Source: a candidate division WOR-3 bacterium
GTDB lineage: Bacteria > Hydrothermota > Tepidihabitantia > Tepidihabitantales > Tepidihabitantaceae
Direction: 5' to 3'
Assembly: GCA_039801225.1 (NCBI GenBank)
Contig: JBDRUH010000003.1
Location: 1-57,244, forward strand
Length of the DNA stretch: 57,244 nt
Every line of letters starts with the position of its first letter. The stretch's first letter is position 1. The position numbers are program-made. This document shows, piece after piece, positions 15,001 to 18,000 of the stretch.

Positions 15001-18000
15001 CCCCAAGACCGGCTAATTGACTGGCACAATTCCGCAAGAGAAATTCATAACCGCATCCGCGCCTTGTCTCCTCTGCCGGCCGCTTGGACAACATTCCGAG
15101 AGAAACGCATCCTTCTCCTCCGCTCAAAGATAATTTCTGATATAGAGCAACCCAAAACCCAAAACCCACCAGGCACTGTCCTTATTAACCTCCCCGGAGT
15201 TATTGTCGTTACCGGTAATGGATTCTTAGAACTGGTGCAATTAAAACCGGCTGGAGGTAAGGTGATTACCGGCAAAGAGTTCCGAAACGGATTCCGGCTA
15301 ATATCAGGAGAAAGATTTGACGGGTAAGAGGACAGTATGAAAAAGAGTAACCAGCCATTAACAGTATTTCTTTGGCTTCTAATATTCATTACCATTTTTG
15401 TCCTCATTATCCTATTTAACAACTTATTAATGCCCTTTATCACCCGAAAAGGACAGGAGGTTGTTCTTCCAAAACTTACCGGAATGACCCAAAAGGAGGC
15501 AGAGAGCACCTTGCACCGTTTAGGGTTAAAGATTGGTGAAGTTAGGCTGGTGCCCAATTCGGAAATTCCTCCAGAGCGAGTAGTTACTCAATATCCCCGT
15601 TTCGGGCGACGGGTGAAACGAGGAAGAGAGATAGACCTTGATATAAGTCTTGGCTCTCCTAAAATAAAAATTCCCGACTTAATAGGACTTCCTCTGAGCA
15701 ATGCCCTCGCCACCTTAGAACAATCAGGATTTGTTGTTACACAAATTGAATCGGTCCGCACGCCAAGGATCCCCGCAGGAAGGGTCGCCTCCCTATGGCC
15801 TCCTCCAGGTACCGAAGTTCGCAAAGGATGTGAAATTAAAATCTCGGTATCAACTAAAGTCGGAACATTTCCAATGCCCAACCTGGTTGGTTTGAATATT
15901 GAGACCGCCCGTGGTGTTATTATCTCTTATGGTTTAAATCTCGGACAGGTCAAATTAGGTGCAAGTTCTGAGCCTGCCGGAACCGTCCTATTCCAATACC
16001 CGGAAGAAGGTATGACGGTCGGTCCAGGAGACTCGGTAAGTTTAATAGTTGCTCAAAAGAGTGATTCTGTTCACTGATGGTTAAAATCTCCGCCTCTATC
16101 CTTGATTGTAACTTTCTCCATCTAAAAGAGGAACTCAAAGCGGTTCTTGAAGCCGGGGTTGATGCAATTCACTTAGATATTATGGATGGCCATTTCGTTC
16201 CCAACCTGAGTTTTGGTGTTCCAATCGCCCGGGCGGTGCATAAGTGGATTACTCAGCCGACAGCCGACACCCGACAGCCGACAGCCATCTATGCCCATCT
16301 GATGGTCATTAAACCGGAAATTTTTATTGACCGTTTTGCTCCCTATGCCGACTTCATCATCTTCCATATTGAAGCAACCGAAAAACCCGACGAGTGTTTC
16401 AATCAGATTCACGCCGCAGGGAAAAATGCCGGTATCTCCCTCAACCCGGATACACCGATTGAATCTTTAAAACCATTTCTCACTTCCGTTAAGGATGTCT
16501 TGATAATGAGCGTCTACCCTGGATTTGGCGGTCAGAAGTTCATCCCGGAAACAATTGAACGCATTCGTTTTCTTTACCACCTCCGACGAGAGATAAAAGG
16601 GAAATGGACCATTTCGGTTGATGGTGGAGTGAATCCGGACAACTGCCGCGACATAATCCAGTCCGGTGCTGATATCCTCATCGCCGGTAGTGCCATCTTT
16701 AAAAGTCCTGATTACCGGAAAACTGTTCGTCGGTTAAAATGTTTGACATCCTGACCCAGCGACTAACTGAACTTCAGCGCAAACTCCTTGGTAGAGGCAG
16801 ATTAGGTCCACAAGAAATATCCCGGGCGGTGGGTGAACTCCGCACCATACTATTAGATGCCGATGTGAACTACAAAGTTGTCGGACAGTTCGTTCGTTCG
16901 GTTGAGACCCGGCTTAAGGAAGAAAACTTAAGTGCCAGTCTGAAACCTGGCGACTTAATCACCTACACCATATATCAAGAACTGATCAATCTCCTTGGCA
17001 GCACCACCCCGAAATTGGAGTTAAAGTCTACACCCGCGGTCGTCAGCCTGGTTGGACTTCAGGGCACCGGTAAAACCACCCTGACTGGCAAACTCGCCTG
17101 GCGCTACCGCAACCGAAAACCGCTCCTTGTTGCTTGCGACCCAAAAAGACCGGCAGCATCCGAGCAACTCCAGGCGGTTGCTCACCGGGTTAATTGCGAC
17201 TTTCATCCAGTAGAAAAAGATGTGGTCTCCACCTGCCTTGCGGCAAAAAATAGGGCGCAAAAAAATGGCAACGGCATTATGATCTTAGACACCGCTGGTA
17301 GACTCCATATTGATGAAGAAATGATGGTGGAATTGAAGGCAATAGAAGATAAGGTCCAACCTCAAGTTACCATTCTCGTCCTTGATGGCATGGTCGGACA
17401 AGATGCGGTCAATCAGGCGCGAGAGTTTAAAGAGCGGTTGAACATTACCGGTTGTGTTTTCACAAAACTTGATGGTGACGCCCGTGGCGGTGCAGTCCTT
17501 TCTGTCCGCCAGGTTACCGGTCTGCCAGTTTACTTTATCTCCACCGGCGAGAAACTGGAAGACCTTGAAGAGTTCCACCCTGACCGCATCGCCTCAAGGA
17601 TATTAGGGTTGGGGGATATTAAAAGCCTCGCCGAAAAAGTTCAGGCGGTAACCGAAGAAAGGGACCAAAGGCAAATCGCAGAAAAATTTCTCAAAGGCAA
17701 ATTTGACTTAGAAGACTTTCTCCATCAATTGCGCACCGTAAAGAAAATGGGCTCCTTCTCCCGGCTACTTTCTATGATACCGGGCGCCGGCAATATCCAG
17801 GTGGATGAAAAAGAGTTTATTCGGGTTGAAGCGATAATCCAGTCAATGACAAAAGAAGAAAGACGCAACCCTGATATTATTGACGGTTCCCGGCGCCAGC
17901 GCATCGCTCAAGGCTCGGGGACAACCGTCACCGATGTCAACCGACTCCTTAAAGAGTTTGAGCAGGCACGCGCCCTTGCCCGCCAACTCTCCAGGGGCAA

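Follow-up and report, generated by a model that had tools for sequence, protein, structure and literature searches.

The window, that is, the whole stretch of 57,244 nucleotides analysed here, comprises positions 1-57244 of contig C3 of G000, the genome of a hot-spring bacterium of candidate division WOR-3 (a 72-contig MAG of 1.50 Mb, 48% GC, 88.8% complete); contig and window positions are identical. On the forward strand it encodes ribulose-phosphate 3-epimerase (rpe, 16077-16754, 225 aa, PF00834), an otherwise intact ORF in which TRF detected a heptanucleotide array (16254-16286, CAGCCGA in 4.7 copies, 92% matches). The array and its flanks encode TQPTADTRQPTA, a net in-frame insertion of 9 aa in the alpha2-beta3 loop. 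The invariants of the Rpe alignment (H32, D34, H74 and D182) are all present, and in the AF2 model (pLDDT 93.6) the insert forms a coil (block pLDDT 66) that connects helix 48-59 to strand 70-76.

The insert had been described as absent in relatives. Within the order this held: all 27 Rpe orthologues found in 30 searched relatives were free of the 9-aa insert. However, a protein search beyond this sampled set revealed three closer relatives with inserts of 9, 9 and 7 aa at the same site (85, 78 and 69% identity in the search; 85, 76 and 70% in the alignment), and the insertion event thus predates G000. A metagenome scan with Rpe for the DNA of closer relatives gave no match above 63% identity. 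In a contig of the relative X9 that is about 10% diverged in DNA (record 29), the rpe array is equally long, with 0 gaps.

Further arrays in the window
TRF and unit searches located many more arrays in the window. In the DUF4175-like ORF 2176-5466, an AAAAGCC array (3273-3310, plus strand, 5.4 copies) encodes KAKNQKPKAKSQ; here the G002 orthologue (53% identity) has an unrelated sequence with a 3-aa gap, and the X9 relative carries small indels at 3289 and 3292. An array of the 14-nt (2 x 7) unit AACGGCAAACGGAC (2207-2243, 2.6 copies) falls within codons 1-22 of this ORF in its longest version and may lie upstream of the true start, while a GCATTTC array (5516-5543, 4 copies) is located in the spacer behind it. 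At the 5' edge of a BamD-like gene (ORF 12060-12887), TCGGCTG (5.1 copies) and TTTTGGC (3.3 copies) arrays abut each other at 12110-12167, and the X9 relative has 37 other letters in place of 12085-12166. The fmt gene (14389-15327) contains an AACCCAA array (15149-15168, plus strand, 2.9 copies) that encodes QPKTQNP. The corresponding stretch has 4 gap positions in G001, and in the X9 relative the site holds a stretch resembling 18968-19002 plus 23 other letters. In ORF 18438-19427 (minus strand), a CAGCCGA-like array (18977-19004) runs along the template strand. Two arrays of the CAGCCGA family (27227-27247 and 27328-27358) lie in ORF 27221-27700 (minus strand), the second encoding RQLIADSR. 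An AGTTCTT array (37808-37850, 6.3 copies), which was also scored at periods 14 and 21, and a CGGCCGA array (47518-47545, 4 copies) were found as well. At the gathering threshold, Rfam recognised 0 families in the window.

A genome-wide excess of period-7 arrays
With identical TRF settings for G000 and its relatives (2,5,7; score of at least 30), 320 of the 843 rows in G000 had period 7 (312 arrays after merging), next to 51 rows of period 6, 48 of period 8 and 77 of period 9. At least 21 bp was reached by 224 of the period-7 rows and at least 28 bp by 127; the longest measured 69 bp. The survey's finding had given 335, 250 and 173 arrays, a slight difference that presumably reflects TRF settings, and the strong excess it reported is confirmed. 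Eight Markov-shuffled versions of the genome (orders 1, 3 and 5) yielded only 15-41 period-7 rows each. Array length was also scored for five of these eight, of orders 3 and 5, which gave 2-6 rows of at least 21 bp and 0-1 of at least 28 bp.

Four relatives showed period-7 densities of 12-36 per Mb versus 213 per Mb in G000: 13 rows in 795 kb of G002 (2 of at least 21 bp), 5 in 400 kb of G001 (1 of at least 21 bp), 8 in 219 kb of G011 and 5 in 267 kb of G003 (0 of at least 21 bp in both). The pattern (ACAGCCG)3 with at most 2 mismatches occurred 61 times in G000; of the order's 65 other genomes, 58 had 0 matches and 7 had 1-5, exactly as claimed before; at up to 3 mismatches the family occupies 70 loci in G000. 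Reversing the pattern only rotates the unit and therefore gives no valid control here. The sampled relatives do not share the strong heptanucleotide excess of G000.

To this extent the arrays are lineage-specific, as had been claimed. Against a stricter reading stand the inserts at the Rpe site of the three closer relatives and the low-complexity inserts that other WOR-3 bacteria carry in V-ATPase B at the array site of G000, one of them 7-aa periodic. In addition, the ACAGCCG unit is expanded in at least five unrelated genomes (46-288 matches in five), two of which reach 122 and 205 per Mb in period-7 density. The flanks of 120 foreign (ACAGCCG)3 loci showed no close relationship to G000. A search of literature text for 14-nt strings of the repeat returned two unrelated primers and no other match.

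Arrays inside genes
Our own ORF caller predicted 1,236 ORFs (87.9% coding), and 198 of the 312 merged arrays lie inside one. We called an array deep when at least 30 codons separated it from the longest start and at least 10 from the stop; 126 arrays in 101 ORFs qualified, close to the 130 arrays in 106 genes counted before. The hosts include rpe, rpoB, rpoC, V-ATPase B, pheS, murB, murD and bamA. Orthologue HSPs span 85 genic arrays, 34 of which fall on a gap of at least 3 aa; among the genic arrays of at least 21 bp, 49 are spanned, 28 with such a gap and 12 gap-free. Within the array windows, identity amounts to 19%, compared to a mean HSP identity of 53%. The genic arrays are net in frame, and many are indeed additions to otherwise conserved proteins, whose variable loops and linkers they lengthen or substitute. 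The stop-free units that had been offered as further evidence are uninformative: because a 7-nt unit passes through all three frames, a unit in an open frame is automatically free of stops.

Under random placement 269 +/- 7 arrays would be contained in ORFs, well above the 198 observed. For arrays of at least 21 bp, 77 are deep in genes, whereas the inter-gene gaps, about 297 kb in total, contain 130, and per kb the arrays are about 7-fold rarer in gene interiors than in these gaps. Arrays are therefore depleted in genes, not aimed at them. Genic arrays are mostly oriented such that they encode hydrophilic heptads rich in R, S, P, Q and K. The hydrophobic fraction of the encoded residues is 0.23, compared to 0.41 in the proteome, and for CAGCCGA and AAGCCAA arrays the hydrophilic orientation prevails 24:5 in genes versus 22:16 in co-directional gaps (Fisher P = 0.036). 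Frame differences across an array, affecting G000 alone (9 rows), the relative or both of them, were listed for 55 rows. No conserved gene broken by an array was found among the 13 of these rows checked by hand; all were junctions of neighbouring genes that the longest-ORF caller had read through.

Could the arrays nevertheless be functional? Intergenic arrays would then be binding or regulatory sites in a 7-nt register, as proposed for other heptamers (PMC4679880, PMC4692102), and genic ones would be flexible linkers under selection, for example for high temperature. The high inter-gene density fits this idea, as do the 63 of 97 arrays in co-directional gaps that begin at most 50 nt from the upstream stop codon or overlap it. 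The length of the rpe insert, kept over about 10% DNA divergence, fits as well, but frame constraint alone would keep length in a gene. Moreover, the arrays of at least 21 bp comprise 65 canonical units, orientation in gaps is balanced (27 sense versus 30 antisense), and co-directional gaps hold about as many arrays per kb as divergent ones. The genic arrays sit in poorly conserved loops of unrelated proteins, and the rpe array has no predicted structure (z = +1.7). We regard a functional origin as improbable.

Purity, age and relatedness of the arrays
The survey's finding spoke of a burst, which implies a recent origin. The arrays are degenerate, with mean matches of 84-86% and only 22 perfect rows among 208, and the rpe array is unchanged in length in the diverged X9 contig; this wording is not supported. 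At about 85% matches, the genic arrays are old rather than hypermutable. Contigs of the same strain from three other runs revealed no variation in array length, although contigs hide rare variants, and the comparison of the X9 relative with G000 showed small indels in one array plus differences of whole arrays. Loss of mismatch repair was dismissed as the cause of the arrays, since three MutS-family matches and MutL are present in G000.

These data also bear on the idea that the arrays are contingency loci, which would switch genes by frequent gain or loss of 7-nt units. Coding heptanucleotide arrays can act in this way, as in neuO of Escherichia coli K1 (PMC13001214). Here, however, the hosts are housekeeping genes (rpoB, rpoC, pheS, V-ATPase B, murB and murD), the arrays are short as well as impure, and the hand-checked rows held no out-of-frame array. 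The uniform length in same-strain contigs points in the same direction, weakly, given that rare variants are hidden there. We consider such switching very improbable.

Since the genome is a 72-contig MAG, an artefact of assembly, binning or amplification might be suspected. Contigs of other runs cover arrays gap-free (X2 at 1337-2358, 11601-12766 and 15038-15693; X9 record 29 over rpe), reading frames are kept through about 100 genes, and proteins of a separately assembled relative carry the same arrays. The probability of an artefact is close to negligible.

ACAGCCG, AAAAGCC and AAATCCT are the most frequent units, and the dominant families of related units are CAGCCGA/AAGCCAA, NNTTCCG and CTAAATC. 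Single-linkage clustering placed 62 of the 65 canonical units in one component (random mean 20, maximum 40), which only hints at relatedness; as a means to define families the method was too permissive and was dropped. Units differ less within arrays than between them (mean distance 1.21 versus 1.49, reached in 0 of 1,000 shuffles), and 68 rows of period 14 and 16 of period 21 exceed the 2-12 and 0-2 found in shuffles. Both observations point to local amplification and homogenisation. Local seeding, on the other hand, cannot account for one unit at 61 windows, nor for its expansion in five unrelated genomes.

Mobile repeats associated with the arrays
The earlier reading missed larger mobile repeats that are tied to some of the arrays. 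The first is GCCCGGAATCGGGCGCCCGATTTGGGC, a 27-nt imperfect palindrome of 9 stop-free codons whose 16-nt centre is a perfect palindrome. Its 25-nt core has 10 copies in G000, 6 of them identical (reversed control: 0), and no clean copy in 65 relatives; the palindrome was not found in any of the viral contigs searched. As a single strand it is predicted to fold weakly better than shuffles (z about -2). The element occurs at one fixed phase of CAGCCGA arrays, and the junction is identical in all 9 copies read. Within the window, a TCGGCTG array at 18352-18368 adjoins an intergenic copy (core 18369-18393, 1 mismatch). A second TCGGCTG array (48561-48584, 3.4 copies) adjoins the copy at 48585-48609 (2 mismatches; around window position 48590), in the C-terminal tail of ORF 48486-49355 (minus strand), past the alignment with the orthologue.

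The element is read as the peptide (S/A)RPNRAP(D/V)SGR in V-ATPase B, a P-type ATPase and proteins on C42 and C12, and as a variant in a protein on C34. V-ATPase B of P0122, 96% identical to that of G000, does not have the 9 residues of the element (ADS---------RQPTADSRF), and the P-type ATPase shows a 9-aa difference at the element compared to P0242. Exactly the 9 codons of the element are thus missing in the closest orthologues of these two essential-type genes, which indicates recent in-frame insertion or excision. By these comparisons, the arrays appear to house a tiny mobile insertion, although exact loss of the element from the relatives would explain them equally well. The difference between filled and empty sites is exactly 27 nt in two genes, which rules out that the arrays grew by target-site duplication of the palindrome.

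The second is a dispersed MITE-like repeat of about 150 bp (140-170 bp) that carries 14 arrays, including CTAAATC arrays. One copy at 5571-5739, with a CTAAATC array (5593-5618) at its end, gave 25 further blastn matches of 82-100% identity on 19 contigs. Two of the copies in the window are at 18121-18290 (CTAAATC array at 18143-18168) and, in reverse orientation, at 50192-50361 (TTTAGGA array at 50315-50340). The X9 relative lacks the MITE-like repeat at 5454-5731; in place of this segment, which also holds the GCATTTC array, it has 65 other letters. Further small palindromes of G000, at 16, 13 and 10 loci, end in CCCTACA (= TGTAGGG); the 27-nt element has no such GTAG-type foot and is often intragenic.

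Do such agents also move the arrays themselves? A copy-and-paste agent would then deliver them, the 7-nt period would stem from target duplication or a short template, and slippage would contribute little. In line with this, one unit family occupies 70 loci and is abundant in five unrelated genomes. Arrays are also clustered (51 pairs within 200 nt versus 14.3 +/- 3.6 expected), and the palindrome and the MITE-like repeat are physically tied to them. The exchange of the fmt array for a different array and other letters in the X9 relative fits too, as does the different 7-aa-periodic insert CSVLNAQCSML at the Rpe site of one relative. However, the gain from the palindrome is exactly 27 nt in each of two genes, which leaves no 7-nt target duplication, and homogenisation within arrays and the 14- and 21-nt periods also argue against it. 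A conserved flank is lacking in most arrays; of the tested flanks, 125 have a partner elsewhere, and many of these partners are other arrays or paralogous genes. Finally, no transposase, reverse transcriptase or TnpB able to move the palindrome or the MITE-like repeat was found in the 88.8% complete assembly, where the Y1 transposase family PF01797, present in 6 of 14 control genomes, gave no match either. Delivery of the arrays by such an agent thus seems unlikely.

Discussion
We favour, with a probability of roughly 0.55, that heptanucleotide LSSRs accumulated in a sub-lineage of WOR-3, where slippage amplified them, selection sieved them and very small mobile elements settled inside some of them. 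Arrays would lengthen and shorten through slipped-strand mispairing. Because seven is not a multiple of three, slippage by a single unit in a gene is a frameshift, and purifying selection would clear arrays that are out of frame, contain stops or harm structure; the survivors in genes would be neutral or nearly neutral loop padding. Several net inserts have sizes that steps of three whole units would not give (27 nt for rpe, about 18 nt for V-ATPase B), so extra events or a different origin are needed. Some copy process, for example ectopic templated repair or a mobile agent, would also have to exist for the spread of the ACAGCCG unit to more than 60 loci. As a second layer, the 27-nt palindrome would have entered arrays, and 14 further arrays are carried by the MITE-like repeat.

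A more radical reading, which we hold as a tentative possibility, takes both layers as coding-compatible selfish DNA: heptamer arrays copied from a template, and a palindrome that transposes into one array phase with no target duplication and no recognisable transposase. Arrays would then survive in essential genes because any frame gives the same harmless heptad. If this were true, it would be the smallest-scale DNA of its kind yet seen, and the occurrence of ACAGCCG arrays across unrelated phyla would point to a mobilising activity that is widespread yet undescribed, and not to slippage that happened to converge.

The arrays provide a natural catalogue of about 100 sites at which core enzymes and machines of a thermophile tolerate 5-15 extra hydrophilic residues. 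Such sites in RNA polymerase, V-ATPase, PheRS, Mur enzymes, BamA and Rpe could be used in protein engineering and in studies of loop tolerance. They illustrate large-scale colonisation of coding sequence by non-triplet microsatellites under frame selection. V-ATPase B with and without the 27-nt element, at 96% identity, offers a clean before-and-after case for the movement of the smallest mobile repeats. For annotation, stop-free arrays call for caution since they stretch ORF calls over intergenic spacers.

Comparison with known repeat systems
Heptamer repeats with specific units are known from heterocystous cyanobacteria as STRR. The G000 arrays do not belong to them, judged by their most frequent units and by their relatives, which are candidate division WOR-3.

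Prokaryotic genomes rich in heptanucleotide repeats have been published (PMC4679880, PMC4692102, PMC2700814). G000 fits the description of heptanucleotide LSSRs, that is, head-to-tail units of 5-11 nt that are longer and commoner than expected by chance. Passages of PMC4679880 and PMC4692102 cite Mrazek, Guo and Shah (2007) for LSSRs in mostly large, GC-rich genomes, invoke polymerase slippage and describe units that are not multiples of three as rare in coding sequence. With LSSRs as characterised there, G000 shares the over-represented 7-nt period, the genome-wide scatter and the patchy phylogeny, but it is small (1.5 Mb, 48% GC) and carries in-frame arrays in about 100 ORFs. Named heptamer families include TAACTGA in Beggiatoaceae and cyanobacteria (PMC4679880) and GGGNATC in Xanthomonas and Nostoc (PMC4692102), both with a proposed regulatory or binding role, and (GGGACCG)4 inside and between genes of Geobacter metallireducens (PMC2700814). 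As far as the cited passages describe them, these families are lineage-restricted, with arrays of 2-26 units that number tens to a couple of hundred per genome, and in this the G000 arrays resemble them. The named families mostly have a single unit per genome, are mostly intergenic and are under-represented in ORFs, whereas G000 has several unit families and a large fraction in housekeeping genes that is confirmed by orthologue gaps.

For the 27-nt element, a close parallel is that of the Rickettsia palindromic elements, which measure about 150 bp and, like other MITEs, fuse in frame with host ORFs (PMC10969869). In both cases a dispersed, dyad-symmetric palindrome lies in frame in unrelated conserved genes and encodes a conserved peptide, here the fold-compatible RPNRAPDSG; the G000 element differs from the description in that source in its host, in size (27 nt rather than 100-150 bp), in its 10 copies and in its restriction to one phase of CAGCCGA arrays. 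REP/REPIN-RAYT systems combine extragenic palindromes that have a conserved GTAG foot with a Y1 (IS200/IS605-type) transposase in the genome, which this incomplete MAG did not yield. Small dispersed repeats (SDR) of Nostoc are reportedly 21-27 nt long, hairpin-like, apparently mobile and nested in other repeats. They would then resemble the 27-nt element in being shorter than 30 nt, hairpin-like and nested, in a different phylum.

In the passages of PMC13001214 on neuO of E. coli K1, a coding heptanucleotide array has 3-53 units, and the full-length product is made only if the copy number is divisible by three. The G000 arrays likewise are 7-nt units in coding sequence that are read as a heptad peptide. 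Contingency loci are long, perfect arrays in accessory or surface genes, a form that the G000 arrays do not take: neuO, as described there, contains a single long, perfect, hypervariable switch in an accessory gene, whereas G000 has many short, degenerate arrays fixed in core genes.

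Results

Heptanucleotide arrays in G000 and other genomes

The genome under study (G000; 1,504,744 bp in 72 contigs, 48.3% GC, 88.8% complete) gave 843 TRF rows (settings 2,5,7, score at least 30), 320 of them with a period of 7. The neighbouring periods 6, 8 and 9 had 51, 48 and 77 rows, while 68 rows of period 14 and 16 of period 21 were likewise conspicuous. Period-7 rows reached a maximum of 69 bp, with 224 of at least 21 bp and 127 of at least 28 bp. Eight Markov-shuffled genomes yielded 15-41 period-7 rows each; the five scored by length held 2-6 rows of at least 21 bp, 0-1 of at least 28 bp, 2-12 rows of period 14 and 0-2 of period 21. 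Thus, the excess is about 10-fold overall and about 50-fold for arrays of at least three units.

Under identical settings, pieces of four family members stayed at background level, with 13 rows in 795 kb of G002, 5 in 400 kb of G001, 8 in 219 kb of G011 and 5 in 267 kb of G003 (12-36 per Mb versus 213 per Mb in G000) and 3 rows of at least 21 bp in total. The excess reported by the survey was therefore confirmed. Its counts for (ACAGCCG)3 with up to two mismatches were reproduced as well: 61 in G000 and, among the 65 other genomes of the order, none in 58 and 1-5 in 7. The reversed pattern, being a rotation of that unit, was discounted as a control. The relatives are named 'candidate division WOR-3' by source, and sequencing runs containing the window bear the label hot springs metagenome. 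The window lies on contig C3 of G000, and the survey's positions apply to it unchanged.

The feature is not peculiar to G000. Three closer relatives carry inserts at the same site of Rpe (see below), and the ACAGCCG unit was found in at least five unrelated genomes (G066-G070; L045, L117, L112, L120, L057; 288, 58, 148, 139 and 46 matches), whose records carry the labels Bacteroidota (two), Gemmatimonadota, Myxococcales and Gammaproteobacteria. The period-7 density reaches 122 and 205 per Mb in two of these five, where many other units occur. Heptamer-rich genomes are thus recurrent, in agreement with Mrazek et al. 2007 as relayed in the available text of PMC4679880 and PMC4692102. The matches in G066-G070 were frequently perfect arrays of at least 8 units and frequently lay at contig ends; other 7-nt units were also abundant in G066 and G068.

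Arrays inside genes

ORFs were called with our own caller (1236 ORFs, 87.9% coding) and contained 198 of the 312 merged arrays, fewer than the 269 ± 7 expected from random placement. Sixty ORF-internal arrays lay at most 30 codons from the longest possible start, and inspection revealed that ORF calls run on past their true limits through stop-free spacer arrays. Since longest-ORF calls then overlap the upstream gene, wrong starts and false N-terminal extensions are likely in automatic annotation of this genome. Read-through gene junctions were seen, for example, at C1:38812, C4:24160, C9:29021 and window position 12110. Deep genic arrays, at least 30 codons from the start and at least 10 from the stop, numbered 126 in 101 ORFs (at least 21 bp: 77 in 62 ORFs), near the 130 in 106 genes counted before.

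Orthologues were compared in retrieved parts of G002, G001 and G011. For 85 arrays one HSP spanned the array, and a gap of at least 3 aa lay opposite 34. Among the 49 spanned arrays of at least 21 bp, 28 had a gap of at least 3 aa, 16 a gap of at least 5 aa and 12 no gap, which upholds the claim of in-frame insertions in conserved genes. Identity was 19% in array windows versus 53% in the HSPs; for 'arrays' below 21 bp, which are mostly chance, it was 45% versus 55%. By Pfam, the hosts comprise RpoB, RpoC, V/A-ATPase subunit B, P-type ATPase, PheS, MurB, a MurD-like ligase, a TsaD-family protein, Ham1/ITPase, GcvH, BamA, TamB, Fmt, a BamD-like lipoprotein, a poly(A) polymerase/CCA-adding-type nucleotidyltransferase (PolyA_pol head domain), a UvrD/PD-(D/E)XK helicase-nuclease, sugar epimerases and a flavoprotein oxidoreductase.

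In rpe (ribulose-phosphate 3-epimerase, 225 aa, PF00834; window 16077-16754, + strand), two CAGCCGA units, one CACCCGA, a further CAGCCGA and a partial CAGCC (16254-16286) lie in frame. The insert was missing in 27 of 27 orthologues found among 30 relatives searched, which bears out its reported absence in relatives, though a protein search detected three closer relatives with an insert at exactly this site. P0002 (85% identity) has QPKANSQPPTA, equal in length to the G000 insert; P0003 (78%) has CSVLNAQCSML, of equal length and 7-aa periodic with a different unit; P0004 (69%) has a 7-aa insert. The net insert in rpe is 27 nt. The codon beside the array is unlike that of all relatives, so the array did not arise by simply expanding ancestral sequence. 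In the AlphaFold model (pLDDT 93.6), residues 61-69 are predicted as a coil linking helix 48-59 to strand 70-76 (block pLDDT 66). We take this coil to lie on the TIM-barrel face opposite the catalytic strand ends. The invariant residues H32, D34, H74 and D182 are all intact.

Selection and local growth

Arrays of at least 21 bp numbered 77 in about 1.2 Mb of gene interiors versus 130 in 297 kb of gaps, a per-kb density about 7-fold lower in the former. As a 7-nt unit passes through all three frames, every in-frame array yields the same heptad. The survey's 102 of 109 stop-free units are therefore an automatic consequence of lying in frame. The encoded residues are rich in R, S, A, P, G, K, E and Q, with a hydrophobic fraction of 0.23 versus 0.41. 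Genic CAGCCGA and AAGCCAA arrays read QPTADSR/KPKAKSQ over SAVGCRL/LAFGFWL by 24:5, compared to 22:16 for the orientation in co-directional gaps (Fisher p = 0.036). This skew, weaker in gaps, points to selection on the peptide rather than to a strand-biased process. No conserved gene broken out of frame by an array was found among the 13 of 55 listed discordant rows inspected by hand.

Units were more alike within than between arrays (distance 1.21 versus 1.49; 33 CAGCCGA-family arrays of at least 28 bp), which none of 1000 shuffles reached. The score was better at period 14 for 32 arrays and at period 21 for 8. Both results are expected from local slipped-strand amplification. Arrays were clustered, with 51 neighbour pairs at most 200 nt apart versus 14.3 ± 3.6 expected, and mismatch repair genes are present.

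Contigs of sequencing run X9 carry a relative whose DNA is about 10% diverged. Across the rpe-ffh stretch (window 15336-18003) we counted 274 differences and no gap. In this relative, 37 other letters stand in place of 12085-12166 (two arrays) and 65 in place of 5454-5731 (an array and a MITE-like repeat). Within fmt (15134-15167), the AACCCAA array gives way to 35 nt resembling the CAGCCGA-type array at 18968-19002, together with 23 letters that show dyad symmetry; as the two versions differ by a net 24 nt, the reading frame stays intact. Some arrays are thus older than the split, while others have turned over since. Their impurity (mean 84-86% matches, 22 of 208 rows perfect) and partly older age speak against a 'burst' in the sense of a recent event.

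Palindromic and other dispersed elements

A recurrent flank of CAGCCGA arrays reads ...GGCTGTC/GCCCGGAATCGGGCGCCCGATTTGGGC/GGCTGTC.... Its 25-nt core has 10 copies in G000 (6 perfect, 4 with 1-3 mismatches; reversed control 0) and one 3-mismatch match, in 1 of 65 relatives; viral contigs held none. The junction had the identical heptamer phase in 9 of 9 copies read. In frame, the element encodes (S/A)RPNRAP(D/V)SGR in V-ATPase B, the P-type ATPase, a C42 protein and a C12 protein, with a peptide variant in C34 and one more copy at window position 48590, in the tail of an ORF. The closest relative's V-ATPase B (P0122), which is 96% identical, has ATVLADS, a nine-residue gap and RQPTADSRFAVVF; the array is hence common to both, with exactly nine residues extra in G000. 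Those next in similarity, P0123 (88%) and P0124-P0126 (84-85%), have neither array nor element. The P-type ATPase differs from P0242 by the same 9 aa. By these two decisive comparisons, the element entered pre-existing arrays, or left precisely, after the lineages split. It adds 27 nt without a 7-nt duplication. Y1 transposase, reverse transcriptase and TnpB domains were not detected in the assembly, which is 88.8% complete. As single strands, the two window copies are predicted to fold weakly (z = -2.0 and -0.2, + strand), so we speak of a palindrome rather than a proven hairpin.

Residues ~170-192 of V-ATPase B (C10:6251-7675) form a loop that serves as a hot spot for insertions throughout WOR-3, with a different low-complexity insert in each of P0128, P0130, P0136, P0141, P0144 and P0149; that of P0130, RRAEGGGRKAEGSDSR, is 7-aa periodic and similar to the AAGGCGG-type arrays of G000. 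P0242, the P-type ATPase of the closest relative, has its own 28-aa insertion, SPRLHHSEPAGESLSATPKESLSGRSGQ, where G000 (C9:26203-29007) has no insert.

All 14 CTAAATC (canonical AAATCCT) arrays are part of a dispersed repeat of 140-170 bp whose ends are inverted. This MITE-like repeat has 25 further blastn matches (82-100% identity, 19 contigs), and its window copies lie at 5571-5739, 18121-18290 and 50192-50361. Small palindrome families ending in CCCTACA (= TGTAGGG, GTAG-type foot), for example flanking C14:11201 and C12:38083, comprise GCAAACCTAAAGGTTTGCCCTACA (16 loci), a ..CCTGAAGG.. variant (13) and CTGCCCGAATCGGGCAG..CCCTACA (10). They look REP/REPIN-like, yet a Y1 transposase was not found in G000. 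Palindrome pairs around GGCTCCGTCATTCCGA occupy 23 loci, and away from heptamer arrays a dispersed repeat with CACCCTAGTGCTGGAG (context ...GGGTTTTACCACCCTAGTGCTGGAGTGGACAGCCCCCTATATAAACCGG...) occupies 19 loci on 17 contigs. At window 52176-52629, a 207-nt unit is repeated in tandem (2.2 copies, 81% matches); as 207 is divisible by 3, this may be a repeated protein domain. The 57-kb window (1-57244) contained no Rfam family at gathering score.

Discussion

We propose that arrays would grow locally by slippage, followed by selection. This is reasonably supported as the mechanism of local growth, not of dispersal: slippage does not account for the occurrence of a single unit at 61 windows, or 70 loci, nor for net sizes such as the 27 nt in rpe. 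The survey's interpretation was right in substance but too narrow, as the arrays are neither unique nor recent and include nested mobile elements.

In kind, G000 is a genome rich in heptanucleotide LSSR (long simple-sequence repeats), and we assume it to be akin to STRR genomes. The 27-nt palindrome presumably resembles Nostoc SDRs. With the Rickettsia palindromic elements, as far as the accessible part of PMC10969869 describes them, it shares in-frame placement with a conserved peptide, and it is about a fifth as large. For coding heptamers, the portion of PMC13001214 at hand gives a divisible-by-three rule for neuO; neuO is a switch, whereas the G000 arrays are not. G000 is akin to the genomes with TAACTGA (PMC4679880), GGGNATC (PMC4692102) and (GGGACCG)4 (PMC2700814), judging from the sections of these papers that were available. 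Unlike those genomes, it is small and thermophilic, has several unit families side by side and shows a large core-gene occupancy, confirmed by comparison with orthologues.
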